In this document: in pieces, positions 1-36,908 of the stretch
Numbering within the stretch: the stretch's first letter is position 1
Layout of the letters: the number at the start of each line of letters is the position of its first letter
Assembly: GCA_032718475.1 (NCBI GenBank)
Contig: JAUCBJ010008580.1
Coordinates: forward strand, 15,958-79,957
Direction: 5' to 3'
Source: Nemertoderma westbladi
Lineage: Eukaryota; Animalia; Xenacoelomorpha
DNA length: 64,000 bases
Made by a program: the position numbers and the translations under genes
Notes under the pieces: generated by a model
Told to the model about the DNA's origin: nothing
The model's input: only the letters and a program-made list of their open reading frames with translations
The model's database searches: none

Positions 1-3000
1 TCCAGTGGATAGTCGATCTGTTCTGTGACATTCCGGCCGATAGCTGTAGCGTATAGAGCCACTTTTAACTCCGCTCGAGGAACTCGTAGCTTGTTGTTTA
101 TCAAGGCCTTAGAGGTAACCAAGGCGACTTTAATTCCATCCGGAGTTTCAACTCTCAGGTAGGCTACTATACCTATTCCCATATCGCTGGCGTCCCAAAC
201 ACATGGAGTTGATAGGAATACGTGGGGAGAACATGACCAAAATATGAACGGGAAATTATAAAGTTCTCGATGGATGGTAGAGCATCCCACGAGTGGTTTT
301 CAAGCCACATTTGTTGAACTAAACTCCGAGCGACCAATATAACTGAGCTAATAAATCCCAATGGATCGAAATAAGTGCTCAGGATACTTAGACAAATCCG
401 TTTAGTTCGAACTGGATTATCTCGCTGTTTTAGCTGGAAAAACAGGATATCTCTCTCTGTGTCCCATTTCAAACCAAGCGTCTTGGTTTCTGGAAGATTG
501 TCTTTGATTAGGTCCAGGTCTTTAACTCCTCAGTCTTCTACCGGGATCGATTCCAGAAACTCACGGGAGTTACTGGTGAATTTAGTTAGTCGAAATCCAC
601 CACGTTTCAAACACTCTACCGTTCCCTTGGCAACATCAATGGCTTCTTCCACCAATGGGAGGGACTTTAAATTATCGTCCATGTATATATCCCGTTTGAT
701 GTTGTCGATAACCGCTTTAGAGAAGGCGTCTCGGTTGTCATCAGCAGTGGTGCGCACTACTGAACAGGCATTCGAGGGGCTCGAGATGATTCCGAAAGCC
801 TGGATGGTCATCCAGTACTCCACAGGTTTTTGGCTGAGGTCTCCTTCAGGCCACCACAGAAATCGCAGGCTGTCTCGATCCCTATCCAGCGCCTTAACTT
901 GTAAGAACATGCCTTCTATATCTGAGGCGAAGGCGATCGAATATTGCCGTAATCTTAAGAGTATTCCCAACAAGGATTGGAGTAAGTTGGGTCCCGGCAA
1001 CAACTCCGAATTAAGGGATTGGCCCATGTAAAGGACGGAGCCGTCAAATACCAGCCGAACTTCGTTGGGTTTACCGGGTTTGGGAACGTAATGATGGGTT
1101 AAATAATACATTCTCTCAGTTATGGGTGTTTCTTCCGGTACTCGCTCCGCATATCCCTTATCGATGAATTTCCTCAACTGTGTCTTGTACATCTCTTTAG
1201 ACCAATTTCATACCTCCCTTGATCCCTAAGGAAACGTGTAGTCGTTGCCTGGATCTGCTTGGCTCTTTCCTCCTCGACTGATAGTGCTTTGTCGTAGGAA
1301 TTAGGCTCTACTGCTTCTTGAGTAAAGAATCGTACGGCGTGTTCGTCGCGAATCTTTGCATTATGTCGATCTATCACCTCATTTAACTCATCGTCATAAT
1401 TGAGTTGTCCGCCATGATGGACGAGATGGCAAAGGTGCACTTGGTTTCTCCAAGCTTCACTTTCAGTGAGGAGGTCTATCGTATTTTCCTCGTCAAATAG
1501 CTGGGTAATATCGTCGTTATCTGAGGAGTATGGTGTTCCCTCAGGTGTGATTTCTCCCTCACTGATTTCTTCTTCCCATTCACTCACCTGATGCACTTGT
1601 TCAGTGGGTAATCTTTCCATGAGCGTTCTATGAGAAGGTCCAGTGAAGTACCAACCTACTCTAGTTCTTCCTGCATAGGTTTGCAATGGTTGCGGTCGAG
1701 CAGGTCGTTTCTCTAATGTCTCAAGCGCCTCATGCGCATTTTGGCCGATTAAAATTTGCACCCCTGTGTTGAATCGGTGTTGAATCTAGGGATATTATGT
1801 TGCTGGGTAAAATCGTCTTCATCCCAGTTGTAAGGTTCTACTTGGCTGGTAGCAAAGTTCTTTATCGCCACCATTTTTACTGACCTTATACTGTGTTCTC
1901 CTAGTTCATCTTGGGGAGTGGACAACGCACCTACATAGTAGTCTGTAGCTACGGTAGATTTCTAAACCTGCATAATTCCTGAAAGGTTCAACTTAGTTCG
2001 GAACTTGGGTTGTCCTGCAAAGATGTCCCCGGCTAGTTCTTTATCGATGAACGTTCCTGTGCTGCCGGAGTCCAAGAGTGCGTTGACTATAAAACTCTTA
2101 CTCAACCCATGGACTCTTAGCTGAACTACGGGGAATTCCCGGATTCAGACGTTGGAAGTTGGTGCTTTCCAAGATGGTTGTCGGTCAGGAATAGCCGGGT
2201 GCGCTTCGTTATCGGTTTCAGTCTCATACGTAAGCGCTTGATACACCGCTGTGTTTATTAGATAACAGGATTCGTTTTCGTCGGAGAATTCATCCGTGTA
2301 GAATCCTTCCATCTCAGAACTTTGGTCAGTGTCGTTCACATCACTGAATTGGACATGTAGTTCGGACTCACTTACCTGACTCAGGCTGTTTCTTTCAAAT
2401 TCGGTGTGCAACAAGATATGATGTTTCGCGCCGCACTTAGCACACCTCGCATCAGAGTAACAGGTTCGCCGTTGGTGTCCTTGTCTGAGACAATTATAAC
2501 ACAACCGCTTATCCCACATGACATCACGTCTATCCTTTAGGGATTTCTTTAAGAATTCATCACACACACTTAAACGGTGGGGCCCGTCGCACAATGCACA
2601 TTTTGGTTTGATGTTACTTACTTTACCTTGGGTAATGTTGTGCACACTCGTTCTTTCCTCGGGCTTTCTTCCATGAATTCTCTTAGGAGACGTAGGAGGA
2701 GTTTTTGTTACCTGTTCTCTCCTGTCACTAGTTCGAGATTTAAATTTACTTACATCCTTAGGCGCTTTGTTGACATAGTAAGATCTTTCGGTGTCTTTCC
2801 CGTTGCTCCCCTCTTGAGAGGTCTGGCTTTCACAGTCGTCTGTATAACACACTGGTGTTACCTTTCTCCTAGAAACGGGTTTTTCACTTACCTTATTTTC
2901 CGGTGTCTTCTCTCTGGACTGCTTTAGGAGCTGTAATTTTACCTCTCCATCTAAGAATGACATGAGATCAGCCATGGTAGGGTCTCTTCGTTGTTGTTAC

Positions 3001-5837
3001 ATCATATATAGAACTCTTTTGTCCCAACGAGTACCTACTCCACCCTTCGGCAAGGTAGATGCTACAGCTCCAATAACCATAGAACTCTGATACTCATGAG
3101 ACTTACCTAGCCAATCTAATTGTCTACAAATCTCCTGGATCTCATCGGAAAATTCTATAATCCCGCTGCTAAGAAACTTTCGTGGCGCTACCAATTTCGC
3201 ATACAAATACCTAGCTATGTTATTCCTATTACCATACCTGATGTTTAGTGTATCCCAGACTTGTCTTAATCCCTCTGGATGTCCAATAAACTTTAACGCC
3301 ATTAACTTGGGAGATCCTTCCAAGCACTCGATGAGGAATCTAAGTTTATCTCCATTAGATAGCACAGAGTTCTGTATGTTATCTTTATAATATTCATTAA
3401 AAGGTAACAATTTTATCTCATCTCCGTTGAACTTGACGATCTCTCCCACCTTTACCACTTGTTGGGCTTCGGTTCTAGCCATTTGACGCGTAAAACTTTC
3501 TTGGGCCATCGTATTATTTAATATCGAGTTATCGGTATATAAATTTCTCGGATTAGGATCAGGTCTATATGGGATATCATTATCAACAGGTTTATCGTTA
3601 CCCTTAATAGGGTTTACTATAGGAGTTTCTACTTCACTAGCAGTATAGATGCGTATAGGCTCCACACCTTGCGCATAAAATACTTCAGACCTAACAGGTT
3701 GACACATTGTTACAGGGGGTGGTGTTATACCCCTTTGTATATTTACTAATTTATCGCGTTCTAACGCGATACTCTGCTGCACTTCTTGCAGTTCTAACCT
3801 ACCCTCTCTTACTGTTCCCTTTAACTGCTGCACAGTCCCTTCCATTTCTCGGACGTGTTGGGAGGAACGGATGCGCTGTTCCTCCAATTGTCCGAGCAGG
3901 AGATCCATCCCCCGCCGTCCCTCATCCACCCACTCGACCGCCGAAGCGGGAGCCGCCAACATAGTAGCGGGTAGACGAGGGACGACGGGTGATAAATCAT
4001 TGATGTCTCGCTCGGCGTCCAAGACTGGGACTGTTTCTGCGGCTATTTTATTGGGCACAGGTAATTTAGTACTGTGTAAAGGGAATTTAGAGTTAGGTTC
4101 TGGAAGTACAGGTATCTCCATCACCAAAGGGGTGGCTTCGAGAACAGGCCTAATTATTTCAGGCTCATCTACTATAGTAGGGAGTCTTTCTACTCTAATA
4201 ATTTGGTCTGTGGGTTCTGTACTACCTAAGTCTGCTATAGCTAGTTGCCTTCTCACAGCTGGGGGCAAATTAGGCAATTTCTGATGGTGAGGCATTCTTC
4301 TACATCTGCAGGAACGAGATCTATTTCCTCCACCTTCAGGATCTGTTGTATCGCCTTCATCAGATGATGTAAATCCCTGTCTCTTGGGAGTAGATCGACT
4401 TATCATCTGCATATACTTAGCTGTTCTTTGTTTATTGAAGTGATCTTGCTTCTCTTGAAGATTTTCCAACTCTAGTTGGACTGTCTCTTCAGATGCTCTC
4501 CGTTCTGCTGCTGCCACCGCCTCTGCTGCTTTTCTTTCTGCTTCTGCCGCTGCTACCTTTCTTTCAGCCTCTGCCTCTGCCTCTTTTCTTTCTGCCTCTG
4601 CCGCTGCCACTGCAGCTGCTGCTTTTCTTTCAACTTGTGCCGCTGCCGCTGCTGCTGTCTTTCTGTCTTCTATCCGTTTTTTCTTTAATTGTTCTTCCTG
4701 TTCCCTAGCGATAAGGATGCTTTCATCAAATTTAGCCTGTTCTACGGCTAACATTTCCGCATCTAATGCGTCTAACACAAATTTGGCTCCCTCAGTAGTA
4801 GGATGAAGTCCAGATAGTCGTCTCCTTAGCTCTTTGTCGCCTATAAATCATTGATAGTCCGACAGATAGATGTCAATGGCGTCCTTCTTCTGAGGTTTCT
4901 CTAATGTAACCTCGCTTTCCACCTGAGAAAAGGTAGCGTCTGTAGATTCTCCGTGGGTCGAGCGCTCAGTTAGCTGAATTTTCCATTGGGTAGTCCCTTG
5001 GACTTTAAGACTCACCCGTTGGAACCAGGTCTTTACGGCAACTTGCAACGACGTGTCTTGGCTTTTTTTCGAGGCTTCCTCAAAGGCTGATAGTATTAGT
5101 CGGATTCTTAAGATACGTTCTCTAACTTGATAAAGCAGCTCTCCCTGCTGTTGAGGTCCTTGGGGTTGTTGAAACAGTTGTTCTTCCAATCGCTCCAAAG
5201 AGCTGAAGAATCCCTGTACATATCCTGCTGCCGACCTCTTCCACACAGCTGGATCTCTAGTGTCCTTTACCACTCCCATCCTGTATAAGTCTTCCCAGGC
5301 AGCTTCCGACAAGTTAAACGGGAGTCCAGGTCCGGGGAAGTTCCATTGCGTCTCGACAATAGACTTCAGTTCCTCTATTGTGTATCCCGCATAACTGACC
5401 TTGGTCGTTCGCTTACTTCTCGCCCAATCAATTTGGTGTTCCTCCACTGCAATCAATACTCTAGTGAGTACGGCTTCAGGAAGAATGAGAAGTGGATCCG
5501 AATAAACTGCATCTGCCATCTTTGCTCGGCGCTCGGGTGTCAACTCTACCGTATCTGAGCTACCGGAGCTATCGGGCCGCTGAAAAATAAGTTCTCGGCT
5601 CGGGTGTTGCTGCTGTTTAACAGCTGCCTCTTGGTCCCGCTTGACTTGAGCCCGAGTGCCTATGATAGACCTACGGTGCTTTACTAGCCTAGGGTCTGAT
5701 ACTACTACTGAAGGGATGACCTTTCTTACAGTAGGAGGGGACTTGAACTTCGGTCTCAAGCATTCGGTACTCCTGTCGGAGTCGCATACTGTTCTTTCTA
5801 GGAGACTATCTGACAGAGTTTGCTTTGTGTCAGCCAT
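1..5837 (-). pseudogene. Disrupted BEL/Pao gag-pol polyprotein
   Basis: ORFs 4848-5837, 2997-4778 and 2145-2975 share one frame, broken by stops. BEL knuckles CALCDGPHRLSVC / CYNCLRQGHQRRTC / CAKCGAKHHILLH; protease ALLDSGSTGTFI (~2040-2090); RT FASDIEGMFLQV and IYMDDNL (530-1192); TKRICLSILSTYFDPLG (173-472). Confidence 0.9.
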
Positions 5838-5959
5838 GTTTGATTGTACGATTGAATGCCTACTACTATAACGACAGTTAAAGCAAGTCTAGTAATTCAG
5901 TATCAACTGTTAGCCTAGTAATTAATTACCGATATCGTTACTTAATGTAACGCGATATA

Positions 5960-6230: not shown

Positions 6231-7802
6231 TCAATTATTTTAGAATAACTGAATTTCTGAATTTTAGGGTTACTTTTCTTTACTTTGTTACTGTTATTAA
6301 GCAGTAGTCCAACTGATATTAAGACCTAATTGATGTATGACAGGCCTACTACTTTATAAATCGGTTTGAGTTGATTTATAATATATATATACCCTTATAA
6401 TGGGTTTTTGACAATATTTGAAATAAATGTTATTATTTCTGGTAAGGAGTCACTACACAGAAGCTGAACGCTCTCAGTGAAGTGCTACTTATTGGACACT
6501 AAAACAAATAATTCTACTTGACTAAGTTACTTATTACTACAAATTACGTACAATTACAGGGTGAGATTACAATCTCTAGATAAATACAAAAATTACACGT
6601 ACAAATTTTTTAGGGTAATTTTACAGGAAATCTACAAACCAGCCTAACAAGGGTTAGAATTTCTGGTTTATTCAACGGACAGGATACTACGGTATTTGAA
6701 AATAATTAAGCAGTAGTAAATAAATTGCGTTGTCCAGATAAGAAAATACCACCGTCTGACGACTTATAGTCTTTAGCTGTACAGCTCTATAAGTACTACG
6801 TTATGTACCCGTAGTGTTCCTACCTAGAAGTTAATTACCGCAGCCAACCAGAGCTAACTTGCCTATTAACCACTTTATAACACAAATATACTGCCTACAC
6901 ACTAATTACCTTCGGAAAGTATTGTACACTAAACCCTAAATTAGGTACAAGTACTTATACAACAAATAACCAGCAGTTAAATATACTTGTACAGCTAAAA
7001 GAACCACGGCATCTGCTGGAGTGACTAGAGCATAAAATCACCAGTCTTTACCTACGCCAAGCAGCCCTGATGCAGTACCGGGGTTAATTTAACTATAACG
7101 GTATGTATAACAAGCACAATTACTGTAGGAATAAACTTGGGGAGTTATGTATGTTGCGAATACTCGCAAATACTCTGAATAATAAATAAATACGCTACCC
7201 GTACAGACTACACAAACAAAATACAAACCAAACGCTGGCATACTACTATCAAGCCTAAATAAACTACAGTATATGCAGACTCCGAAATGGTTAGTTAGTA
7301 TGCGTTCTAACCGAGTAGCACGACTTATTCTTTCGGGGGGGATTTACCTTACAGCACTGGATGCCCCCACCTTCCTAAGTAGTACTTTATCGGACATACA
7401 CTCTACACACACTGCAATCTCTTCAGACTCAACAACAGTCAGACAACAATCCAGCCTACAAATTATTTGTACAATCTGAGCAGGCTTACACACCCTCTGC
7501 TCAATATTACACTTACAAATAAATAAAACTGACAGAAATAAATAAGCTCTAAAAGAAACAAGGGGTGTACAGTACAGTCCCTAATCTCTTAAACAGCCTA
7601 CCTATATACAATATCACAATCGAAATAATACTGGTACCGGTAAGTACCGGTTCGGGTGGTTAGGTAGTTAGGCCTACAGGTTACCGTCCGACTGGTACAG
7701 TCGAATTTATTGCCTACGTGCAATCAAAACATAAAATCTATTACTGTTCTTACCAGAACAGTAGACAACTGTATTTGATGTCTGCTCTGCAATCAGAAAC
7801 TG

Positions 7803-7813
7803 AAATCTATTAC
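7803..7813 (-). promoter_or_regulatory. Non-tRNA primer-binding site of BEL A (GTAATAGATTT, element sense)
   Basis: Directly abuts the LTR terminal CA; does not start with TGG; exact complement lies inside the LTR at 8540-8550. Confidence 0.6.
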
Positions 7814-8962
7814 TGTTCGCGCTTTCAGACCTTTAGCAGTTTAACCCGCCAATTTTAGGTGTCCTCTTATTTATAAATCGACTTTAGCCTATAACAATTA
7901 TTTAATGCACATGAAGTAACATTAGCCGAAGCCAGTCTATGCGCGATCATTCACCCACGGTTAAGGGAGACTGGATTCGGATGCTTTGAAGTGATTGCGG
8001 TGCAGACCTACGGTATTATTCGATTGGTAGTTACTATATAATCTCTGACAATATTATTCACTTTCGGGGAAATATTAACAGTTCCTTTAGGACGTGGCGC
8101 TTTAAGTATAAAACAGAGTTATGACTTACACTAAACACATCGAGATGGCTATTGATTTTCGTAAATGGCGCATTCTTTAGGAGATGCTTTATTATCTGTT
8201 ACACTACTGCATACGATTTCACACTGCTGCACACTGATCTGCCGACCGTCACTGAATTTAATCATATATAAGGAGGATAGCAACTGACACATGTAGGGCT
8301 TATGAAATAGCATTGAATGCACACAAAAACCACTGTAATGTAAGTCGCAATTGCTACCGGTAACCAGTCTCTCTAACCTTTGGTAATCAAGAAGATTGGG
8401 GTTTTATGATTATTTCTCGATATTCTCCAAATATAAAAACATATCCATCAACAGGTAACAATTAATAACCGACAGTAAATAGCAGTAAAATAATGCGGTG
8501 AAATTGGTGCAGTTTGGATTGTTCAGTGTAGTGTGTTTGGTAATAGATTTACGCTTTTATAATCAAAGCCGTCTAATGTTGGCCAAAGTCTGAAACTTCC
8601 AACACAGAAGCACAGAATCATTTCCAAGCAGTTGTTCTCGCTCAGAAAGGTAAACAAAGACCGTCATGCATTGCGCGGTTTTCCGTAGGCCTCTGTGCAA
8701 AATCGCTCTGATTGGTCGAGCGAGCCGAACAAAGGAAGTTAAGAAAGCTCCACATCGACATCAAATCAGCTGATAGATTTCGTCATCTGAACTACACTGT
8801 ATTAAGAGTATTTGGGGTATTGCGGCATAAAATGGCTTGTTATGTCCGCTAAAACACCTACAGAGTACATTGCGGAGAAAATGGCTTGTTATGTCCGCTA
8901 AAACAACTAAACAGTTCATAGCGGAGAAAAAATGACTGGTTATATCCGCAAAAGCTTTTACA
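7814..8962 (-). repeat. 5' LTR of BEL A (~1149 bp)
   Basis: TGTTCGCG...GCTTTTACA termini; colinear homology with 24252-25446 begins and ends exactly at these boundaries. Confidence 0.88.
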
Positions 8963-9620
8963 ATGAGATGGAGAATGAAAATAGTGAGGGTCAGGATGAA
9001 GTTGAAGAGAGTGATGTTGAGAATGAAGAAAGTGAAGATCAGGAAGAGGATGAAGAAAGTGAAGATCAAGAAGAGGGTGAAGAAAGCAAAGGTCAGGAAG
9101 AGAATGAAGAAAGTGAAGAACAGGAAGGGGATGAAGAAAGTGAAGAACAGGAAGAGGATGAAGAAGAGGAAGAGGAAGAGGATGAAGGAAGTGAAGGTGG
9201 GGAAGAGGATGAAGAAAGTGAAGGTCAGAAAGAGGGTGAAGAAAGTGAAGATCAGGAAAGTGAAGAATAGGATGAAAATGTTGATAATGAGGAAATATTG
9301 CGACAACTACTTGAAAATAAGATTAAATTGCAGAAAATTATTAATCATTTGAAGGAAAATGAAGAAAATAAAGAGGTGACATTGACCCAAGTTCTAGGAA
9401 GTAAAATTAAATTACATAAATTTATTAAATATTTAGAAGAGAATGAATAAAGAAGAGATATTGAGGCAAATATTAGTAAACAAAAATCAAATGCGGAAAT
9501 TTATTAAACAAATAGAAGAAAATGAAGAAAATTGAGAAGAAATATTAACACAGGTCCTGGTAAATAAAAGTAAATTATTGAAAATTAATGAACAATTGAA
9601 TAAAATTAAGAAACAGTTGG
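8963..9620 (+). repeat. Purine-rich 27-bp minisatellite able to encode an acidic (EESEDQEED)n tract, followed by degenerate GAA-rich repeats
   Basis: Units such as GAAGAAAGTGAAGATCAGGAAGAGGAT; truncated on the left by the BEL A LTR and on the right by a TTAA element. Confidence 0.75.
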
Positions 9621-9624: not shown

Positions 9625-11216
9625 CCCTATTAAACCCGGGGGGGGGGGGGGGAGGGGTCAATATGACCCCCCTCGCGGTTTTTTTATTATAATTCTGAAA
9701 CAAACGCAGTTGGGAATCTGAAATTTTATGAATTTTCCTAAAAATCTATTGTCTTCCTAGTATTGAAAATCGTTTTCAAAAATATTGGGTAGTTTTCGAG
9801 TTATAGCACCATTTTTTAACCCTACTTTTGGCACTTTTTTGAGACGTTTTTTGAAAATTACATTTCATTAAATGTTAATTGTAACATCTCTATTATTGAT
9901 TTACACCGGTTTTTTGGTGTTAGAAATTGGATGGATTTCATATAAATTGATTTAGAAATTTCAAACTTGTTTTTTTCGGCGGGTGCCAATTTTTGGTGCC
10001 AGCACCAAATTTTGAAATATGTCAATTTTGTAAATTGATTGTGTGAAACTTGTTTTTTACGCAATTGGGGTTTTTTGGGGTTCTGGTTTCGATGAAATAT
10101 ATACGAGTTGCACCAAGCGTATCAAACTTGTATTTTTCGGTGGTGGGTGCAAATTTTGGTGCTGCACAAAATTTTGAAAATCCATTCAATTGATAAAATT
10201 GTTTGTGACAATTTATTTCTTGCGTTTTAGAGGTTTATGGCTATTCTGAATTGAATGGAATATATAATTTTCGATCTAGGTATCTCAAACTTGTATTTTT
10301 CGGAAGTGGGTGCAAAATGTGGTGCTAGCACCAAATTTTGAAAACCATCAAATATGTCAATTGATTGTGTCACCTTGTTTCTTGCGTTATACGGGTTTGT
10401 GATGGTTCTGAATTCATTGGAATCAGTAAAAATTTCATAAGAGTTCTCAAACTTGTATTTTTCGCCGGTGGGTGAAAATTGTTGTGCCAGAACCAAATTT
10501 TGGAAAATATGCAAATTGATAATTACATAGTATCACCTTGTTTCTTGCGTTATACGGGTTTATGAGGGTCCTGAATCCGATGGAATCAATAAAAACAGCA
10601 CTGGACATCGCAAACTTGTAGTTTTTGGTGATGGGTACGAAATTTGGTGCTAGCACCAAAATTTGCCAAATTACGCCAAAAAATACAAGTAGCAATGATC
10701 TGGCATATTAGAAATGTATTCCATTAGAATCAGCGCCCTCGAAAACCTGAAAATGTGAATTTAAAGCATCGTATAAGTGAAATAAAAATTTTTGTGTTCT
10801 AACTGAAAAGTGCTGGTTACTTGTTTTTTTCATTTTTTTCCTACGCAGAGAGGACTAAACACCCATTTATAGTAATCATATCATTTTTTAATATTTTCCA
10901 ATGTATTTTGCACCCCAGAAAACCTGTATTGAAAAATAATTAGCCGAAAATGTAACTTTCAAATTTGGTGAAAATTGTGCACTACTTGTAATTTTGGTGC
11001 TGCAATATAACAACCCCAGTACATTTTTTCGAAAAATTTTTTTTCGGTCGGATCCAGACAAGTGAAACCTACGTACAAACAAAAAATCAGACGTTTTCGT
11101 AAATATTATTTTGTAGATTTTAGAGGGGGGGGGGGGGGGGGGGGGGGGGGGGTGGGGGGTCAATATGACCCCCCCCCGGTATTTGTACATCATTTTATAG
11201 CCCGGTACTAATAGGG
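9625..11216. mobile_element. piggyBac-type non-autonomous element (MITE)
   Basis: TTAA|CCCTATTA...TAATAGGG|TTAA; subterminal GGGGTCAATATGACCCC palindromes at both ends; internal ~165-bp repeats (AAACTTGTATTTTTCG...GCACCAAA); no transposase ORF. Confidence 0.85.
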
Positions 11217-11541: not shown

Positions 11542-12552
11542 TAATAATAATAATAATAATTGTTTATTCGAGGACCCCCAAGTTTCCCTGGTGTCCCATA
11601 ACGTACATGGCCTATAGTTCTAGCACAAACAAAAAGTAGAGTAAAGTAATGTAGTAAGGAAACACAATTGTATGTACACGTAATAAATTAATAAGACCCT
11701 TATTCAGCCCAATTTCTTAAAACAGACATCCCCATGATTCTACTATGGCAGCAAGTGGTCATAATAGTTGCCTGTACGAGGCTATTCGGGCAACTATAGG
11801 CACGGCCTAAAAAAGACGTTATAGCCCCCGATCTAATATGAATAAACTTTGATAACCCCAGGCTACCAAACATATACGAAGCACTGCACCCCCATGGAGA
11901 TTTGAATAACCTCCTTGCTGTATTATTATACGCTACCCTAAACTTATTATGCACCATACTAGAATAATTTGACCTAGCCCACAGTGAATTACAGTATATC
12001 TGGGTACAAAAACTACGAAATAATTTAATTTTTACCGTAACCGAGCACCCCCCGAATTTCCTAATTATAATATTTGCACGCCTACAAAAACTACGAAGTT
12101 GATTGTAAATATCAAAATCATCATCGGTAGAGCTACACAGGATGTGCCCTAAGTACTTTACCTCTGACACTACTTCAATATTAAGACCATTAATTGTAAC
12201 CTGACCGACATCTGTATTCTTCGCACATTTTGGATAATAAAATAAGCACTTGGTTTTCTTACAATTTACTTTTATACAATGCTCTAATGCGTACGATTCA
12301 AAAATATGAAGTAACTTTTGTAACCCATTAATCGATTTCGAACATATCGCTAAGTCATCCGCGTACATTAAATTATTAATACGGACCCCTGACATTTGAC
12401 ACCCTATCCCCGAATTAGAAAGTTCCTTACTTAGGTCATCTTCATCTATATACACACTATACAGGTACGGCGATAATATCCCACCCTGTTTCGTACCATT
12501 TGAAACCTGAAAACTCTCTGATATGCACTCCCCCCATTTTTCAAAAAGAACC
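11542..12552 (-). mobile_element. LINE 3' fragment (RTE-X-like), RT C-terminal half
   Basis: KQGGILSPYLY upstream of ORF 11700-12455, which has MYADDLAI, VKYLGH and ANIIIRKFGGCSVTVKIKLFRSFC; AATAAA plus (ATT)n tail at ~11542-11570; cut off by a Gypsy LTR at 12553. Confidence 0.82.
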
Positions 12553-12652
12553 TGTGATATGTGTAATGTGTCATATATAGTGTGTTATATGTTATATGAC
12601 AGTCTGCATGTAGACGGGCAATATACAGTTATCTGATACATACTGTACTTCA
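12553..12652 (+). repeat. Probable 100-bp 5' LTR of the outer Gypsy
   Basis: TGTGAT...CTTCA, immediately followed by a TGG-type PBS; the partner LTR is not visible. Confidence 0.6.
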
Positions 12653-12665: not shown

Positions 12666-15154
12666 GTCAGGATAGGCCTGCAGGTAGTAGGCCACAGTAT
12701 TGCGTTAGGCCTAAGAAACCTGCAAGTAGGCAGGTAGGCCAGGCAAGTAGCCTAAACATGACTGCGAGATAAGCGATATAATAAATAAACTGCCGGCTAA
12801 CTGATAAACTGTTCGATTATTGTTGTTAAACATTTGAATTTATGATTATGGCCCATGGAATTGATCCACGTACATTTATTCTGAAAAAATGTGGTCCAGA
12901 GTTTGATGTTTCATCGGACCGCTTAGATATTTGGCGTGCACGGTATGATGTGAACACAACTGTTAAAATTCATCACTAAGAAGACTACTGAGGATGTAGT
13001 CGATGATGCGGAGTTGGTAAATAATGACGATACTGCTAGTGTAATACTGCAACTTAACGATAAGCTTCCTGTGGCGGATAAATTCGATATCGAATTAATT
13101 TTGAATGGAATAGAGGCACACATCCGGGGTGCAACCAACATACGAGTATACCGAGATGAACTGATGAAGAGAACTCAGAAAAGCAGAGAACGGTTTCGGG
13201 ATTTCCTTCTGGACCTACGAGATAAACTCAAACACTGCGGATATAAAAATGAAGCAGGAGACCCTGAAGACAACCGACTGCTCGATACTATTATATTCAA
13301 CGTCCATGATGGCGAGGCTAAACGTAAACTTCTCGAGAAAGGAAACGATTTAACCATTGATGAGGCTATACGAATATGTGAAGCAGATGAAGCTTCACGT
13401 ATGGATCAGGCAAAATTAACAGGAAATTCACATATTGTTTGAGACAGTCTAAATGATATAAATAAACTCAGTCAGTATAAACAGCCAAAGTCCCCACAAG
13501 AATGTCATCTTGTAATATGAATGCCGGTACTAGAAATAGTTCTGAACCACTCCGGGCCCAGGGCTATGGGCCACGGTGTAGGCAGTGTGCAAGACACCCA
13601 CACAATCCTGGAGAAATTTGTCCTGCTAACTAACAATCTCCGATGCGATAATTGCGGATCGTTCGGGCATTTTCGAGCAGTATGTAGGAATTCAACTTCT
13701 GTATACAGTACACAGAATTTGAATTCCTACATACTGCTCGAAAATGCCCAAACGATCCGCAATTATTGCATCGGAGATTGTGGTGGTGGTGGTCCACCTC
13801 GCCAGACCAGAGCATTCCAAAGTAGTCGAGGTAATCCTCGTTATAACCATGTCCACATGTGCAATGCAGACTATGAACAGGACTATGACAATGAAAGTTA
13901 TCCCAATGTGGGAAATATAGATCTTGATGATAATGTTTATGGTTCATACCATAGTAGCAACACAGAATACAACGAAAATTCTGATGAATCTTTTCTCACA
14001 TCTTTAATCGCTGTTACTAAAAATGCAGATGTAAGAGGCTTGGATGTTCTGTACATCATCATCCGAGGTGCTGGATTACGTGGTCTAAGGGATGGGAGTA
14101 TTTTAGATTTGGTTGGCTACCGGACAGTGGGGCCAATGTCACCACATTGACTATGAAAATATTTCATAAATATGGGGGAATTTATATCAACTCCATGCAG
14201 GAGACAACCCACATGGTCCAGACGGTACACCAGCATCGTTAACCACTATAGGTTTATTTCAGGGGGAGTTATGGCTAGGCACTAAATATTATCATACAAG
14301 TATCATGGTGAGTGAAGGCCTTATAACCCCAATTCTATCACGACAAGGCTGTATTAAACTAGGTTTATTGCCAGAAAGTTTCCCTCGACAACTATTCAAA
14401 ATTCACTCTCAAGGGCCAGCAGTATCCCCTAGCTCTAAACATATCAACATAGATGCTGAATGGCTACGCACTGGTGAACCAGTGCAACTACGCTTTCATA
14501 ATGACATCACTCCAGTAAAAGTATATACTCTACGACAAATACCCTTACCATTACGAGATATTGTAAAATCTGATTTAGCAAAACTCAGTGAAGACTGTGT
14601 TATCGAACCCGTAATTGATGCCCCCGATTGGATATCTCCCATGGTCGCTGTCCCCATAAAGTGACAGCCACAAGAGAAAACTAAAATTAGGTTAACAGTT
14701 GACTTTCAAGCTCTCAATAGAGCTATAGTTCGACCCATATTTCAAATTCGCCCGCCACGTGATATCGTAAGCTCACTACCAGACTGGGCCATGCATTTCA
14801 CAGTATTGGATGGCCTAAAAGGATACAATCAAGTAGGCCTCCACGAGAATAGTCGCCACTTTACAACATTTGTTACCCCATTTGGACTCTACCGTTACCT
14901 TCATATTACCATGGGGATCTCGTCAGCTAGCGATGAGTAGAACCGCCGACTATTTGAGGCTATTGACCCTTTGCCATGCGCAGATAATGTGGTCGAAGAT
15001 ATTATTATTTTCAGCAGCAATGTAGAAGACCACATCCATGATGTTGAATTTATTGAAACAATGTGAACGATTTGCAATCTCACTCAATCCTACTATGGTA
15101 CAATTCTGTCAAACAGAAGTGTCATTTGGCAGTTATAAGGTGTCAAAAGGTATG

Positions 15155-15578
15155 TGTGATGTAATACCAGTCGAGGTTAATGAACTCATAACCTGACATG
15201 GGCGCCAGAAAATCATTATTACAATATTAACTGTAATTCTCAAGAATGATTATTTTCGCTCAGATTATTGACCTTCGGTTAATGTATTATAAACATTAGG
15301 TGATGGGCTTATTGAGTTGGGATATTAGATAGGTATACCATATACTACTACTGTGTAGTTTATTGACCTATGTTTGATGTATTGTAAAACATCTGGTGAT
15401 GGGTTAATTGAGTTGAGATATAGTTTATATCATTATCTTGGTATAAAAAAGATTTATTGTTACCAACACCGATCGTGTTGGATTTAATAATTTCAAAGAT
15501 TAATATAGGTAACATTTATGTTTCTATAAATTATATTTTGAACTTACATATTATGTATCTTATATTGATACCACAACA
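15155..15578 (+). repeat. 5' LTR of inner Gypsy
   Basis: Direct repeat of 20912-21335; preceded by GTATG. Confidence 0.95.
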
Positions 15579-15935
15579 TTTGCGCAGTGTGAGGTGCATC
15601 ATTCAATATATTTGCATATCCTATATTTGCTTTCTTCTTCCGCTCTTGCTTAGAAGTCCAGCAACACGATGGCCGATATAAAATCATTAAAAACAGCCAA
15701 ATCAACTGCTCAATCATGGGTCTCCAGAGCAATTATTAACGAATCGAAGGAAGTTGTTCTTTCATTGTGGTCATCAGATGCATGACGCAAAATTCACATT
15801 CACCGTGCCCTGCGCGATGTCGACCTTATACTACCCCTTATTGAATCTTTTCGGAAAGCCATTGCTGCTTATGAAAATGAAACCCAGATACTAGACGACG
15901 ATGCTCAATATCGTGCAACACGTGCATCTTTAGAA

Positions 15936-17642
15936 GTGGAAGACCTCCGTGTAGAACTCGACGTCATTCTTAATGAAACTAAGGAAAAGATAAAAAATAC
16001 TATTGCAAAGGAAGCAGCGCGTGAGAGAGCAGAAGAAGAAGCTCGAGCTGCAATACACGCAGCTCAACTTCTAGCCATACAAACATCACATCATGGAAAC
16101 ACATCTATTAGTACACAACCTACAAGGAACGTTCCTACACCCCATAAGTTAAATAAAGATACGGATGCGATGTTTTTCACAGATTGGCGCGCCCAATGGT
16201 CTGCATTTGTTCAGGCCTCACATATCCCAGCTCGTGATGAGTTATCACACCTACAACTTTCAATGACTCCAGATTTCTTCAGTATAATCAAAACAAATTC
16301 CCCAACTGTAGATGTTACTACATGTTCTGGAGAAGAATTCTTAAACGCAACTGCTAAATATTTAGAAAATCTTTGTAACACCAACATGTCCTGGAAAAAA
16401 TTACTATCCACGAGACAATCAAACCTAACACCAGGTGAATATAAAAGCAAACTGGTGGCTAACCGTCGAGGCGTTGGACCCATTACTGACGACACTCTAT
16501 TATCTGCTTTATTCATTATGGGTCTTGATGATGAAATTCGTAAACGAGAATTACTCTCTAAACGGCCACCTCTCAACTTCGATGCTACCGCAGAATATGC
16601 AATTACTTTCACTTCAGCATCTGAGGATCCGAAAACGAATACTATAGCCGAGATTAAGGAGATATCTGAAAATGAACTTATTGGTGCTGTGTCAGCATAC
16701 CGTCGGAATAAAGTTACAAATATGACACCACCACCACCAGCAAACAAACCTGGATTTAAACAAAACATCAACCAAATGGGAAAACGACCTACCAGTTTTA
16801 CTCCAATTCATCGAAATGATCCCCGCCCTGCCATGTACACTGCAGAGGCCAAAAATCATGCCCCGGGAACTTGTTTACGCTGCGGACAAATTTATGATGG
16901 GATTGGAGCACACAAGGATTGTCCAGCGAAAGGAACAACATGTGAGTTTTGTGGAAAAGTTGGTCATTATAAGAGAATATGTTTTCAAAGAAAAGCTTCT
17001 CATAACAGCAACATTAATGCCATTACAATTGCTGGTGTTTCAAATAATTGTAAAACTGTAGAACTCGATTTTACAGTAAATGGTCAATATATCGGTAAAT
17101 ATTTAGTTCTACCAGATATGGGAGCAGACGTAACAGTCATGGGAAACGATTTTGCTAGTCAACTGGGTGTCTCAATGGCACCCCTACGTGACAATGACAA
17201 GAGGAAATTCATAACTGTATCTGGACAAAACATAAAAAAGGTTGGTCGAATTGTTTTTACTGCCACATTACATTCAAAATCTGTCAACGTAGATGCCACA
17301 GTCTGTGAGGGAGTTAAAGGTCTGTTCTTGGATTGTGAATGCTGCAGAGCTCTCAATATAATACATGAGCATTTTCCTGAACCAATTTCATTTGATTCCA
17401 TCAACACCATTAATACTGTTGAAGGCCAATCCTATCCTAATGATACTCTTCCTACCAGGTTGCCAGTATATTCAAAAGAACAAACCCGATTATTAATTGA
17501 ATCGTTACCAAAAAACCCAACATCGAGTCAGATATCAACCCTATGGAATAAATTGTTGTATGATTTCTCCACAGTTTTCAATGAATCGGATGAGCTTCAA
17601 CCAATGAGAGGATCTGCCGGAGTACCATGGAAATTCATCTAA
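15936..17642 (+). CDS. Gypsy gag-protease (true start probably upstream, ~15668, disrupted)
   Basis: Mag-type double knuckle CLRCG...HKDCPAKGTTCEFCGKVGHYKRIC; protease-like VLPDMGADVTVM. Confidence 0.85.
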   Translation: MEDLRVELDVILNETKEKIKNTIAKEAARERAEEEARAAIHAAQLLAIQTSHHGNTSISTQPTRNVPTPHKLNKDTDAMFFTDWRAQWSAFVQASHIPARDELSHLQLSMTPDFFSIIKTNSPTVDVTTCSGEEFLNATAKYLENLCNTNMSWKKLLSTRQSNLTPGEYKSKLVANRRGVGPITDDTLLSALFIMGLDDEIRKRELLSKRPPLNFDATAEYAITFTSASEDPKTNTIAEIKEISENELIGAVSAYRRNKVTNMTPPPPANKPGFKQNINQMGKRPTSFTPIHRNDPRPAMYTAEAKNHAPGTCLRCGQIYDGIGAHKDCPAKGTTCEFCGKVGHYKRICFQRKASHNSNINAITIAGVSNNCKTVELDFTVNGQYIGKYLVLPDMGADVTVMGNDFASQLGVSMAPLRDNDKRKFITVSGQNIKKVGRIVFTATLHSKSVNVDATVCEGVKGLFLDCECCRALNIIHEHFPEPISFDSINTINTVEGQSYPNDTLPTRLPVYSKEQTRLLIESLPKNPTSSQISTLWNKLLYDFSTVFNESDELQPMRGSAGVPWKFI

Positions 17643-20600
17643 AACCAAATTATACACCATCATGTATTCGGACGTCCAGATCAATTCCAATCCCATTGAG
17701 AAATGCTACCAACAATGAATTGAACAGGATGGTACGCACGGGCATCATTGAACGTGTTGGATCCGATGAACCTGCGATATGGTGCCATCCAATGGTAGCA
17801 GTCCGTAAGCCAGACAAAACTGTACGCATCTGTGCAGATTTAAAAGCGCTAAATGATCAAGTCTTATCTCCAATTCACCCGATTCTTACACCTGTGGATG
17901 CAGTTAACATAGTAGGATCCGACAACAAATATTATACAAAGCTAGATGCAGCAAAAGGCTACTGGCAGATGCCATTATCAAAGGAATCTCGCCATCTAAC
18001 AACATTTCTGTCTTCAATTGGTCGCTTTCGATACTTACGGTCACCAATGGGATTCAAGAGTACTGGTGACAGTTATGGTGCCCGTGGTGATGCTATATTT
18101 ACAGAAATTCCAAAATTTACAAAAATCGTCGATGACTGCCTGTGCCTATTGGGCGCTAAGACTTTTGCCGAAATAACTCACAACACAATTCAAACATTAG
18201 AAATATGCCATAAGTTTGGTGTCACACTCAAAAATAAAAAATGCCAATTCGCAGTCCCCGAAATAAAATTCGCTGGCATAATCGTAGGCAGAGACGGAAC
18301 CAAAGTAGATCCTGAAAAAATAGCTGCTATTCATAAATTCCCTATTCCCAAAAACATCACGGATATGCATGCCTTTATGGGATTGGCCAATCAGCTAGGT
18401 GGCTTCAGTACACAATTAGCTACAGTAACACAACCACTCCGGGGATTATTAAAGAAGTACACCAATTTTCAATGGTTACCAGAACACCAAGCAGCATTCG
18501 ATAATACTAAATCAGCACTAACTAACTCACCGATTCTAGCCCAATTTAAAATGGACAGGCCAACCAAACTATGGACTGATGCCTCATGTTTAAACGGACT
18601 TGGATTTGTCCTGTTACAGGAAGATGAATCGAAGGAATGGCATCCAATTTCTTGTGGTAGTTGGTATATTTCAGAAACCGAAAGCCGGTATGCCCCTATC
18701 GAACTCGAGGGTCTAGCTATTGTTTGGGCAATAAATAAGGGCCGGATATACCTTGATGGCCTTGATCATTTCATTGTAAAAACAGACCACAATCCCCTCT
18801 GTTCTATTTTCAATAAACAAACCATTGACCGCATTGAGAACAAACGTTTACAAACAATGTGTAGTCGTATTTCTCACTTTAGCTTCACAGTAGAATGGAC
18901 CAAAGGGAAACAGAATCTCGCAGCAGACGCCCTTTCCCGCTATCCAGTACAACAACCAGTAGAAGACGATATAATCATTAATGATGAAGCTGATGTCCTA
19001 TCACCGACACAAACAATTGCTTATTTAGCCAATCTCAGAGAGGACTATGACATCACTAATGCAGCCGTTGAGAGAACCCCTTCCATAGATCTCCGACTTA
19101 ATCGTCTTGTTACTGCGGCAATGGAGGATGATAATTACCAGGAACTCATTACCTCAATTAAGGAACATACAATATCAGTATCAGCTAATGAATATGTACG
19201 ACTTTTTCGCCACTGTTCCAATGAAATGTCTCTAGGAAATGGATTTGCCCTTCGCAATAATAGAATTGTAATTCCTCCAACACATGTTGATCAAACTTTG
19301 AATGATTTGCATCTATCACACCAGGGATCAGAACGAACAAAACGTAGGGCACGTCAGATATGTTTCTGGCCTGGCATGAACAAAGCTATCCAAATTATTG
19401 TCAACAATTGTGAGATGTGCCAGTTATATCAAGCATCACAGCCAAAGGAGGAACTCCAACGCAACAGTCTACCAACCAGACCTTTTGAAGTAGCCTCTTC
19501 TGATCTATTTTCTTTGGATCATGCTCATTATCTCGTATATTCTGATCGGTATTCCGGCTATCCATTTGTCCGACATTTCAATAATGATCTGTGACGGGAT
19601 CCGAGAGGATCCCGGTTTATCCGGTGTCGCTTATGTACGCGTCAAGGGCCGCACCGTTCGGTGGAAAAGATATAGGAGTTTTGCTTGTTCCGACGTTCTC
19701 TAATAACACAGGATAGATAAATATCTGATAGCACGAAATGAGATAACTGATGTACCGGTAGAATGTACTGAGTAAACTGGTGTGGCGATGACAGTCTAAA
19801 TTGTCACCGTACTACCGTGACTGTAGTGACAGACTGAGATAACTGAACAAATGATCACTGTACAGATAATATATACTGCACGGGTTGGCCTCATTGCATT
19901 ACCCAGTCGGTGCCTTCCCCCCATTGGCTAATATCCCTGTTTGTCACCCTTTGCCCCCCTCTGAAGTGCTTCCCTTCGCCCTTGCTATTCTCTCTCTGTC
20001 AGGGGTGTAACCCCTGACCCCTATTGTGCGTTTCTCCTTCCCACTTTATTGGGGTGACACGAGGTTGATATTGGTAATCAAACTCGTGTTCCCAATATTG
20101 CTTAACGGCTCATTTTATGGGGTTTGGTGAGGCGGAATTGATTCGCTAACATGATCCATCAGCACACACGGTCTGTAATGCCTTAGAAGAATGGTTTTCC
20201 ATTACAGGAAATCCTAATGTTTTGAGAACTGATCGCGGACCTCAATATAGGGCAGAGGAAACAAAAACCTTTCTACGCGAACATGATGTATCATGGGAAC
20301 CTTCATCCCCTGGTTGCCCATCTAGTAATGGGCATGCGGAATCATCCGTAAAACTAGTTAAAACCCTTCTTTGTAAAACCGGGGGTAAATTCCAGAGTTG
20401 TTCCTTCATGAAGGGCCTCTTGGAATTGCGAAACACACCGCGTGAAGATGGACTTTCATCAGCCCAACGCTTTCTAGGCAGAACACTTCGTACAGCCGCT
20501 CCAGTTGACCATTCTATTTTAATTAAACCCATCAATACAGACACCATATTGGAAGCAGACCGAATTTATAAGGACAACTTAACCAAGCGAGACACTAACT

Positions 20601-20899
20601 ACAACCTTACAGCTACAACATTAAAACCTTTTGAACAAGGAGATTTAGTTGATGTTCAGAATAAAACAACCCATAGATGGGATCGACAAGGGATTGTTCA
20701 TGAAACCAATGTTCCTCTCCGCACTTATACAGTTGCTTTCAACAATGGGGCACATCTCATACGGAACAGACGATTTCTTCGCCCTTTGTCCAACTTTCAA
20801 CCACCTCCGGGAACTCACCCAAGCACGCTACCAAATCCACCACTACGACGAAGCACACGACTAAGATCCAATCAATATAAAGGTGAAGGGAACCCTTAA
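17627..20899 (+). pseudogene. Gypsy pol (RT-RNase H-integrase) interrupted by a solo LTR
   Basis: KLDAAKGYWQ, IVDDCL, WTDASCLNGLG, ELEGLA, KTDHNPL, AADALSR; HHCC zinc finger; integrase resumes at 20222 (RTDRGPQY, SNGHAES). Confidence 0.92.
19590..20151. mobile_element. Solo LTR (562 bp) inserted in the inner Gypsy integrase
   Basis: TGTGAC...CTAACA flanked by TSD TGATC; splits the integrase core. Confidence 0.88.
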
Positions 20900-20911
20900 G
20901 GGTCGGGGGCG

Positions 20912-21335
20912 TGTGATGTAATACCAGTCGAGGTTAATGAACTCATAACCTGACATGGGTGCCAGAAAATCATTATTACAATATTAACTGTAATTCTCAA
21001 GAATGATTATTTTCGCTCAGATTATTGACCTTCGGTTAATGTATTATAAACATTAGGTGATGGGCTTATTGAGTTGGGATATTAGATAGGTATACCATAT
21101 ACTACTACTGTGTAGTTTATTGACCTATGTTTGATGTATTGTAAAACATCTGGTGACGGGTTAATTGAGTTGAGATATAGTTTATATCATTATCTTGGTG
21201 TAAAAAAGATTTATTGTTACCAACACCGATTGTGTTGGATTTAATAATTTCAAAGATTAATATAGGTAACATTTATGTTTCTATAAATTATATTTTGAAC
21301 TTACATATTATGTATCTTATATTGATACCACAACA
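20912..21335 (+). repeat. 3' LTR of inner Gypsy
   Basis: Direct repeat of 15155-15578; followed by GTATG. Confidence 0.95.
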
Positions 21336-21643: not shown

Positions 21644-22739
21644 TGTTGCCGTTATTCCCGACACCATGGGGAAAACGCTGATGCTGGTGGCGGAATTTTC
21701 AGACCACTGGATTCCGGCGAGTCACCGGATATTGGAAATGGAGAAGGAGTCTTTATCTGAGATGCAAGATTGCAGTAGGAAAAAAGTCGCATTGGTTCGA
21801 TATAATCGTTTAATGTAACTTTGAACCTTGATCAATACTGCACCTTGATTGAGAATAATTTGGGCTTCCCCACACCAATATACCAAATATTCACAATAAT
21901 ACACGAACATATAAATTCCTACAGTACATTAATTAATTACCCACTGTTCGCTTTAGATTTTAACCTAACTAATGTTCCCCATTTTCCCTCGGTCCTAGTC
22001 CCGGTACCGTAGTGTCGGCATCGGTCGACCCTGTTGCGTGTCCATCCCACCCTTCCCGAACCCCGAAGGGATCGGTCATCAGGAAAGCGGTAGCTTGGCC
22101 AGGGGTCTGTCAGCCCGTTGTGAGTCCCAACTGTCGGTAGCTTTCTGAGTCCCTTTCAGGCTCGTAGTAATGCCGGTCGTGGAACCCACTCCAGGAAGGC
22201 AGTCCTCTTCGAACCATTCCTCCGTCTAGTCGGTCGATCCGTCGCAAGTCCCTGGCGTAGTCGGCAAGCTTTCTGAGTCCCTTTCAGGCTCGTAATAACT
22301 GCCGGTGACCAGGGACCGCTAAGGATCTGTCTGTCAGTTCCTGTCGCAAATCCCTGACGCAATCAGCAGACTTTCCGAATCCTTTTCAGACTCGTAACTG
22401 CTGTTGGCCAGGAACCGCTAAGGGCAGTCCTTGTCCCTAGGCCTAGCGGGTTACCAAAACTACCTCTACAGGCGGTAGGAAGTTGGCTAGGCCTAATTAA
22501 TTAGTATCAGGTAACCCTGAGTACTGCTTGATTTTACCTCCCACCCTTGGCCCTTAAATATATGATTTGAGTCCCGTGCCCCGTAAGTCGCCCCAATATT
22601 CGCCCATAAATCGCCCCCAGTCCATTGAAAATACCCAAATTCCATGTTCCCGCACCCAGTACTGATATTGGAATATTCATTATAAATAAATCCGAAAAAT
22701 ATTCAACTAACGTTATGAAAAGTTGAAATACCGCGAACA
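21644..22739. mobile_element. Solo LTR (1096 bp) inserted in the outer Gypsy RNase H
   Basis: TGTTG...GAACA flanked by TSD CCTCG; splits HTDASREGGL|GFILSQ; internal ~110-130-bp repeats at 22130-22420. Confidence 0.88.
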
Positions 22740-24251
22740 CCTCGGATTCATTCTTTCCCAGAAAGACCCCAGTGATGGTAAGTGGAAAACGGTTCAGTGC
22801 GGTTCCCGACGATTGACATCAGCAGAAAAAAATTGGGACATAATCGAATTGGAGTGTTTGGCAGTCACATGGGGGGTACTTAAATGTCATATGAATCTGG
22901 ATGGTCTCAACCACTTCACCATACACACTGATCACCTGCCTTTAATACCTATACTGAATAACAAACGCTTAGATCAAATCAATAATATTCGACTATTAAA
23001 AATGCGCACAAATCTCGACAGATTTAATTTCACAGCACACCATGTCCCTGGAAAATGGCACTCAGCTGCTGATGCGCTATCTCGGTTGGAGCTCCATGAT
23101 CCTAAAAGTAATGATATAATTATCAGAGATGACATAGACCATGACCCAATGATTAATATTGCTATATCTGCCCTCCAGCAAGATGTTGTCCCTGCGAATA
23201 TTTCGATAGACCGTATCCAACAAGCTGGTGACAATGATGCCATACACCGCCATTTAAAGCATTACATTCAAATCGGATTCCCTGAACATAAAATGAAACT
23301 AGAGGAGGAAATACGACCATACTGGCATGCCAGGTCCGAACTCTTTACTGACAACACTGGCATTATACTATTCGGACACCGTCTTGTTATTCCCAGATCT
23401 GAAAGATCTCGTATTCTAGAAATACTACATTCATCACATCAAGGACAAACAAAAACCCTTGAGTGCGCAGCTACCTCCGTCTGGCGGCCTGGCATCAGTA
23501 ATGATATACTGCATACTATGGAGAAATGCTATTGCGCCGAATTCCGACTGTCACTTGCCAAAGAACACTTACAATACCACGAACCTGCTACCTGACCAAT
23601 AGAAAGGATCCATGCTGACCTTTTCCAAGTTAACGGATGTCACTTCCTTGCAACTATTGACGAATTTACCAAATGGCCTAATGTACATGATTGCAGAAAT
23701 CATACAACCTCTAAGATTATTCCAGACCAGCTACTCAGTGACTTTCAATTGCTATGTCTGCCATGCATTATACAGTCAGATGGTGGTTCCCCATTCAACA
23801 GCACCAACTACAGCTAATTATTACAACGACGGGACATTAAACAGGAAATTACTTCACCAAGGATGCCAAGAACCAATGGGTTGGTGGAAAATAATGTTAA
23901 AACCTGCAAAAAACTTATTCGTGCATGCTGGGATCCTAGCCACATCACTGTGAATAAATAATCATTTACCCAGTGTTTAATTGCTTTAAGAAATTCCAAC
24001 AGTGATGGTGGTGTGGCTCCATTGGAGAAACTTATGGGGTCACGCCTCCGGGAACTCCTTCGAAGACATGAGCTTGCTTCTGCTATTGACTTCAATAATC
24101 GTATCGAGCGCCAAGCTACATCCAATCATAGGAAAGAAATACGCCAAGATCAATACAACACTCATTCCAAACCATTAAACGAACTACATAGTGGTACACA
24201 AGTTTGGGTGCAAGATGCTATTACTAAGCGTTAGTGTCATGATGACACCAT

Positions 24252-25446: not shown

Positions 25447-25472
25447 CCGCTCCCAGAAAATGGGATTTAATT

Positions 25473-28804: not shown

Positions 28805-29325
28805 TTACGTTGGGGAGTCCCTAGATGTTTGTTGGATTAGGGAGGTGGTCGTGGGAAGAGTATCTTGCCTTCCATAGTTTCCGGATAGTTCTCGGTCTCT
28901 TTCCAGTAAACATAAACGACCAACTGGGCGATTGAGTTGTTGTGTTTCGAATAAAGTTCCAGGTTTCTTCTTCGTCCTGGAATAGTGACGATGGAAACAT
29001 CGCTTCAAATACACGACGGCCTTAGAAAGCCGATTCCAGGAGCTATAGTGGTTTATTGCTCTCTGCAGGAGAGGTGAGAGCCCCTGCGAGACGTCTGGTG
29101 TTCCAGATTTCCAGTCTCTTTCTCTGATTTCCACAACAGATTTATTTGTGGCGGGGAGTTTAGATCCACAGCGTCGTCCCCTGAAATGTGTAGTACAGAC
29201 AGATCAATCATGGGTTTAAATAACATTGATTTACTCGTCCGGGTTTTAGGTTTGACTTTCTCCGCTCCCTTGGCTTGTCTAATCTCAGCCGTGGTGAGAT
29301 GAGGAGGCCATTCATCCTCTTCTGC
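28805..29325 (-). pseudogene. BEL pol remnant (post-RNase H linker joined to integrase C-terminus)
   Basis: EEDEWPPHL (~29300), HYSSWNRLSKAVVYLKR, then LNRPVGRLCLLE, which matches the pol end of element C (VDRPVQRLVLLE). Confidence 0.75.
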
Positions 29326-29327
29326 TT

Positions 29328-31712: not shown

Positions 31713-31922
31713 AAATGGTCGGGCAGTTTATATGAGAAATAAAATTAACAATAAATGCAAAATATAATAAAATAATAAAACAACACAAAGCGAGCATCTG
31801 CAGGAGGAGTTACCTAAAGAGTACAATAAAAGTGCATTAACGGCACACAAAATATAGCAGGGGAAATTCGTTAATTTGGTGTGCAAAACCAGATCAGGCG
31901 AAATTAGAAGACATTTAACCAA

Positions 31923-34849: not shown

Positions 34850-34883
34850 GGGGCAATTTATTTTCGTGTGGTGCTAATTGATA

Positions 34884-36897: not shown

Positions 36898-36908
36898 GTA
36901 GGAAGTAC
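36898..36908 (+). promoter_or_regulatory. Non-tRNA primer-binding site of BEL C (GTAGGAAGTAC)
   Basis: Abuts the LTR end; exact reverse complement GTACTTCCTAC at 35624-35634 (and 52794-52804). Confidence 0.62.

Follow-up and report, generated by a model that had tools for sequence, protein, structure and literature searches.

A stretch of 64,000 nucleotides (nt) from Nemertoderma westbladi (GenBank assembly GCA_032718475.1, contig JAUCBJ010008580.1, positions 15,958 to 79,957 of the forward strand), hereafter the window, to which all coordinates refer, contains two retrotransposons, elements A and C, of BEL/Pao, the third superfamily of retrotransposons with long terminal repeats (LTRs). In both elements, the 11 nt that directly follow the 5′ LTR are exactly complementary to an 11-mer inside that same LTR. 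Judged from this layout, the post-LTR site and the LTR 11-mer are probably the primer-binding site and the primer of a self-primed reverse transcription resembling that of Tf1.

The 5′ LTR of element A occupies 7814–8962 on the minus strand (1149 nt) and was delimited by self-BLAST and by alignment with a sister repeat, LTR B; its TGT...ACA ends were read directly, the 3′ LTR of the element falling outside the window. On the minus strand, the LTR ends at 7814 in ...GCGCGAACA, and the primer-binding-like site GTAATAGATTT adjoins it at offset 0 (7803–7813, read 7813→7803). The exact complement of this site, AAATCTATTAC, lies at LTR positions 413–423 (8540–8550, minus strand, read 8550→8540), within the inverted repeat GTAA-ATCTA-TTAC, which has a stem of 4 base pairs (bp) and a 5-nt loop (8552→8540). 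The C at the 3′ end of this 11-mer is paired with the base that immediately follows the LTR, and the match spans exactly 11 nt, being mismatched on both flanks. All coordinates that the original prediction had given for element A, together with the site, its LTR complement and the hairpin, proved exact on letter-by-letter reading.

Element C (34625–54068, plus strand, 19.4 kb) repeats the layout of element A with different letters. The element is bounded by LTRs with TG...CA ends, the 5′ copy at 34625–36897 (2273 nt) and the 3′ copy at 51790–54068 (2279 nt), both on the plus strand and 99.56% identical by self-BLAST; a polypurine-like GGAGCGG (51783–51789, plus strand) precedes the 3′ LTR, and a 5-bp target-site duplication, CGCCT, flanks the whole (34620–34624 and 54069–54073). 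The 5′ LTR ends at 36897 in ...CCCTTACA and is followed directly, at offset 0, by the 11-nt site GTAGGAAGTAC (36898–36908, plus strand). Its complement, GTACTTCCTAC, stands at LTR positions 1000–1010 (35624–35634, plus strand; 52794–52804 in the 3′ LTR) and is held in the hairpin ACCTGTA-CTTCC-TACAGGT (35620–35638, plus strand). Here too the match is exactly 11 nt long and mismatched on both flanks. The LTRs and 11-mers of A and C are unrelated, and neither site has a complement in the LTR of the other element. In both, the orientation suits a primer, with the 3′ end of the LTR 11-mer pairing with the base that abuts U5, the LTR segment next to the site.

Matches of this kind are rare by chance. 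When the LTRs were shuffled and a complement was allowed at offsets 0–6 from the LTR end, a match of at least 11 nt arose 7 times in 3000 shuffles of LTR A and 20 times in as many of LTR C; a second run of 1000 each gave 1 and 2, respectively. In a null drawn from the real sequences, the LTR of element A contains an exact complement for 5 of the element's 7803 internal 11-mers, two of the five being copies of the site, and that of element C for 3 of 14882, one of them the site itself; with the sites excluded, these numbers become 3 of 7801 and 2 of 14881. From such empirical rates, the joint chance that A and C both carry a complemented 11-mer at position 0 is about 1e-7. A young Ty3/gypsy element in the window (15154–21335, plus strand; LTRs of 425 nt, 99% identical), taken as a control, revealed no exact complement of at least 6 nt at offsets 0–6 and no split match; when A and C were themselves searched, neither yielded a split complement spanning an intron.

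That the matches are accidental, or are remnants of an LTR/leader junction duplicated in inverted orientation, is a proposal with almost nothing to recommend it in view of the joint probability of about 1e-7. AT-richness does raise the frequency of chance matches, and the duplex-energy z-score of A is only −1.6 (18 of 300 shuffles), a measure that discriminates poorly at this AT-rich site and was replaced by exact-match statistics. Nevertheless, the sequences flanking the 11 nt are unmatched, so there is no extended inverted repeat, and the same principle recurs in metagenomic relatives described below. The shuffles, the real-sequence null and the BEL/Pao relatives all sustain the original prediction that recurrence of A's layout in C, with different letters, makes coincidence unlikely.

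Both elements belong to BEL/Pao. Element C carries the gag-pol set of the superfamily in one open reading frame (ORF) of 2947 amino acids (37801–46644, plus strand), comprising DUF1759, Peptidase_A17, an integrase zinc domain and DUF5641; in database searches it comes closest to BEL/Pao polyproteins from marine invertebrates (40–45% identity). The internal coding part of element A (39–5888, minus strand), which contains in-frame stops and runs off the window start, includes within the window a gag with DUF1759, a zinc knuckle and a reverse transcriptase, in an order collinear with that of C; its zinc-knuckle region is 37% identical to that of C and its reverse transcriptase 46%. The pol of C carries Peptidase_A17 and DUF5641 and has its best homologues among BEL/Pao polyproteins, which sets it apart from that of the Ty3/gypsy Tf1/sushi clade.

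Three side observations were made. Element C carries an extension of about 800 amino acids, rich in coiled-coil-like repeats, ahead of its gag domain, and element A has a matching layout. A second ORF of C, 1271 amino acids long, lies between pol and the 3′ LTR (47320–51135, plus strand); at E ≤ 1, Pfam yielded nothing for it beyond a sub-threshold zinc knuckle, and the ESM Atlas had no match above 0.82; any env-like or accessory role would be putative. A minisatellite with a 9/27-nt unit is contained in an open frame immediately upstream of LTR A (8971–9303).

Canonical BEL/Pao elements (Belpaoviridae, genus Semotivirus) resemble A and C in DUF1759, Peptidase_A17, integrase, DUF5641 and TG..CA LTR ends, and in the 5-bp duplication seen in C. 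The family profile of the International Committee on Taxonomy of Viruses describes Belpaoviridae as tRNA-primed from an 18-nt site for tRNA-Arg or tRNA-Gly, with LTRs of 0.2–1.2 kb and genomes of 4.2–10 kb (PMC8742986). In contrast, A and C have no such 18-nt site, and C reaches 19.4 kb with LTRs of 2.27 kb. Reading of the post-LTR sequence identified no TGG-type or other tRNA 3′-end site after LTR A or LTR C, which for LTR A upholds what had been predicted. Moreover, the would-be primers of A and C end in ...TAC, not CCA.

Both elements could in principle be primed by an RNA of the host, be it an internal tRNA fragment as in copia and Ty5, a mitochondrial tRNA or some other small RNA, the LTR copy then being incidental or a mimic. 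Half-tRNA priming occurs in Ty1/copia lineages, according to the relevant section of PMC6317226, and the taxonomic profile has Belpaoviridae primed by tRNA-Arg or tRNA-Gly (PMC8742986). No tRNA gene and no Rfam family was found within the 64-kb window, which was the scope of the scan; host tRNAs and internal tRNA fragments lie beyond this comparison. Half-tRNA-primed elements (copia, Ty5, and the plant lineages Bianca and Osser) likewise have a non-canonical site without TGG, although their primer is a host tRNA fragment, whereas here the complement lies in the element's own LTR. We regard priming by a host RNA as distinctly improbable: besides primers ending in ...TAC, it would need, for each of two unrelated 11-mers, a host RNA plus an incidental exact LTR copy, at about 1e-4 per site. 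It would also have to accommodate a site that differs from subfamily to subfamily within a single LTR family, something that a fixed host RNA would not permit, and complements in relatives that form only across an LTR intron, which a host tRNA does not explain.

The variation of the site emerged from public sequencing runs of the same organism (X1–X3), in which depths are sums over a very high-copy family and were used qualitatively. The LTR A family is extremely abundant in all three, with a summed word depth near the LTR end of about 1–2 million, versus 173 for the window-identical contig. In X1, depth drops stepwise through the site, from 475,000 (7812–7814) to 123,000 (7809–7811), 27,000 (7806–7808), 9,700 (7803–7805) and finally 876 (7800–7802). 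The loose-end cells show that many copies of the family keep the first four post-LTR letters but depart from A at several of the seven that remain, so the site varies among family A subfamilies, unlike what a fixed host primer would predict.

The LTR segment around the 11-mer (8526–8633) is both the least abundant part of LTR A in the runs and the part that diverges most between A and B. As a separate observation, depth along LTR A (7824–8962) is very uneven, with peaks at 7824–7877 and 8040–8093 and a trough at 8526–8633 around the 11-mer, which suggests mosaic subfamilies. No single-letter differences were listed over 7776–7856, a result that does not indicate conservation, the contigs being short and ending inside this stretch. 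In run X6, which comes from another organism and whose RNA nature is only a guess, LTR depth follows the DNA depth profile and is uninformative on the start site.

A second copy of the LTR end plus site had been noticed downstream of element A and is indeed present: GAACAGTAATAGATTT, that is, GAACA followed by the 11-mer, recurs at 7749→7734. It proved not to be a family feature, lying as it does within a leader insertion of about 69 nt (7727–7795, minus strand) that consists of a 38-nt filler and a 31-nt near-duplicate of the LTR end, the site and the leader start. Alignment of the two copies shows 16 of 16 identical positions followed by 33 of 58 (Fisher p = 0.0007). In X2, contigs skip 7727–7794, with the joint 7726→7795 in one contig and the joints 7718→7803 and 7726→7803 in one each, and four contigs depart from the window sequence at 7795. 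Because contigs of other copies skip the segment or depart at 7795, we read it, and with it the second site copy, as an insertion in copy A. A strand-transfer error during reverse transcription is a possible origin of the 69-nt insertion.

LTR B (24252–25446, minus strand), identified by self-BLAST and alignment, is about 80–90% identical to LTR A. It holds CGTAAAACTATTAAC at 25029→25015 and, within it, the variant 11-mer AAAACTATTAA (25026→25016), which has two mismatches relative to the 11-mer of A; TATAAAAG, just upstream of the A 11-mer, is also altered in B. The two mismatches had been predicted correctly, but the comparison proposed with them presupposed that B has a primer site of its own. 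B has none: it is a 3′ or solo LTR, because a polypurine-like GGGAGCGG stands upstream (25447–25454), the sequence downstream is unrelated to the leader of A, and no BEL/Pao coding sequence adjoins. The polypurine-like sequence resembles the polypurine tract of C and GGGGCCGG of the metagenomic relatives. LTR B was accordingly rejected as a test of co-variation, there being no primer site in it to compare.

A pol alignment, used to search metagenome contigs, recovered 79 BEL/Pao loci, of which 27 had distant direct repeats; 11 of these 27 gave a usable 5′ LTR end. In IMG/VR, the pol alignment found no relative. None of the 11 relatives with a definable 5′ LTR end has a TGG site. In a first pass, 5 of the 11 displayed a significant self-complement, two contiguous and three across a canonical intron inside the LTR. 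The contiguous cases are L033, whose LTR contains an exact complement of 10 nt (4 of 1000 shuffles), and L070, with a complement matching at 13 of 14 positions (0 of 300 shuffles). In L013, L027 and L078, the complement is split by LTR introns of 123, 76 and 149 nt, respectively, each with a GTAAG donor and a pyrimidine-rich YAG acceptor (at most 1 of 300 shuffles).

LTR ends were corrected by eye after the first pass, so that the following results are post hoc. With corrected boundaries, a self-complement is present in 10 of the 11 relatives, leaving only L058, whose LTR end is ambiguous. L031 has a 12-nt contiguous complement (0 of 500 shuffles), L017 an 11-nt split complement (2 of 500 shuffles), with the same split complement in the 3′ LTR of L007, and L068 a 10-nt split complement that its sister L062 shares with one mismatch. 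Across the relatives, the complements pair 0–4 nt from the LTR end. The complements of L033 and L070 are placed some 40 nt downstream of a TATA-like motif and immediately ahead of AATAAA, the position expected for the start of R, the repeated segment of the LTR.

Splice-junction complements are located at L013:6955–7495, L027:972–1390, L078:2079–2772, L017:785–1752, the 3′ LTR of L007 near 7647–7810, and L068:7275–7676. In these loci, the post-LTR site matches only the junction left by removing a GTAAG/GTGAGT...YAG intron of 67–372 nt inside the LTR, a configuration that suggests a primer made by splicing in the intron-spanning relatives. As a side observation, the polypurine tracts of L013, L017, L027, L033, L078 and L062 share GGGGCCGG right before the 3′ LTR.

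We infer the RNA and enzymatic steps in A and C, and the placement of their 11-mers relative to the transcription start, as follows. The LTR-derived RNA would fold back on itself, or a second packaged RNA would pair with it, such that the 11-mer pairs with the site. Cleavage of the RNase H type 3′ of the 11-mer would leave a free 3′-OH on its last C, opposite the first post-LTR base, and extension of this primer would copy U5 and R to yield minus-strand strong-stop DNA. The part of R that lies upstream of the cut would be recovered from the 3′ copy once the first strand transfer has taken place, and in every cycle plus-strand synthesis would write the site anew from the primer. We propose that such rewriting is the reason the match stays perfect and sharply bounded. 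In folding predictions for an RNA starting at the 11-mer, the mean pairing probability between 11-mer and site is 0.83 for A and 0.66 for C, the latter with 8 of 11 pairs in the minimum-energy fold. A TTATAT/TCAGTC pair in LTR C would start the RNA 26 nt before its 11-mer.

Several findings weigh against this self-priming scheme. Adding 26–30 nt of RNA upstream lowers the predicted pairing probability to 0.16 in A and 0.00 in C. The most distinct promoter-like blocks are found downstream of the 11-mers, which would put the latter in U3, the LTR segment upstream of the transcription start: LTR A has a block at LTR positions 693–775, with TATATATG at 693, TCAGTG at 726 and AATAAA at 770, and LTR C has TGACGTCA plus TATAAAG at 1467, 467 nt after its 11-mer. 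The nearest TATAAAAG to the A 11-mer begins only 11 nt before it, and the promoter-like motifs taken together point to conflicting starts. The distance from primer to LTR end is 726 nt in A and 1263 nt in C, versus 62–247 nt in the relatives. Copy A is defective, with stops in its coding frame. Finally, the site of family A varies after its fourth letter, and the two changes in the 11-mer of B are not both mirrored among the site variants seen.

If the downstream blocks are the true promoter, the 11-mers would lie upstream of it in U3, and the primer would be supplied by the 3′ end of the genomic RNA or by a second packaged RNA, with the genome circularised or bridged over 0.7–1.3 kb of LTR. 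We consider this variant of self-priming unlikely. If true, it would represent a start of reverse transcription unlike both tRNA priming and Tf1-type priming at the 5′ end, in a wholly self-primed BEL/Pao lineage.

The same promoter-like blocks bear on a further explanation, in which the pairing is a long-range RNA–RNA contact that serves cyclisation, dimerisation, packaging or strand transfer while another RNA primes. Should the downstream TATA, initiator and poly(A) blocks constitute the promoter, the 11-mers may belong to U3 and thus occur only near the RNA 3′ end; in addition, both partners in C can form hairpins with complementary 5-nt loops, the layout of kissing-loop contacts. Cyclisation alone, however, gives no reason for offset 0, for a 3′ end that abuts U5 or for the sharp 11-nt limit. 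No other primer site is visible, TGG-type or otherwise, and the complements of the relatives also pair 0–4 nt from the LTR end. A contact without priming is, on this balance, a doubtful account of the pairing.

The remainder of the window is a nest of transposable elements. The leader of the Ty3/gypsy element at 15154–21335 begins with TTTGCGCAGTG and is also without a TGG-type site. Other retroelement fragments, with reverse transcriptase or RNase H/integrase, occur at 11700–12584 (minus strand), 22711–23595 (plus strand) and 29298–30584 (plus strand), and satellite arrays with a unit of about 163 nt at 9925–10670 and 31921–32689.

Self-priming as proposed for A and C has described counterparts. 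In Tf1, the RNA's initial 11 bases pair with the primer-binding site and RNase H cleaves between base 11 and base 12, as passages of PMC7175516 describe, and Tj1 is reported in part of PMC4600332 to self-prime likewise. For Tf1/sushi, Tcn1 and plant TAR elements, sections of PMC6317226, PMC6934838 and PMC3601003 describe or predict such priming. Like A and C, Tf1 and Tf2 of Schizosaccharomyces pombe, Tj1 of S. japonicus and the Tf1/sushi elements lack a tRNA site and carry next to the 5′ LTR a short site complementary to their own LTR-derived RNA; the match of Tf1 is also 11 nt in the passages concerned (PMC7175516, PMC4600332). Unlike the BEL/Pao elements A and C, Tf1/sushi elements are Ty3/gypsy chromoviruses, and in contrast to Tf1, the putative partners in A and C stand 726 and 1263 nt apart in very long LTRs.

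The plant elements Tcn1 (Ty3/gypsy) and TAR (Ty1/copia; Houba and Osr-1) offer a further parallel, their self-priming being likewise a prediction from sequence in the section of PMC6317226 that treats them, although they are plant elements of other superfamilies. By the Tcn1 and TAR predictions, self-priming arose in more than one superfamily. Full-text literature searches returned no paper that ascribes self-priming to BEL/Pao, an absence that is unproven in that most subscription journals fall outside their coverage.

Collectively, two clean cases come from the window, their letters unrelated and their LTRs unusually long, and the metagenomic relatives indicate that the habit is widespread and includes a form dependent on an LTR intron. 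If BEL/Pao elements do self-prime, annotation pipelines that rely on tRNA-type sites would miss or misjudge them, and host defences aimed at such sites, for example 3′ tRNA fragments, would leave them unaffected. How priming originated in LTR elements would then have to be reconsidered.

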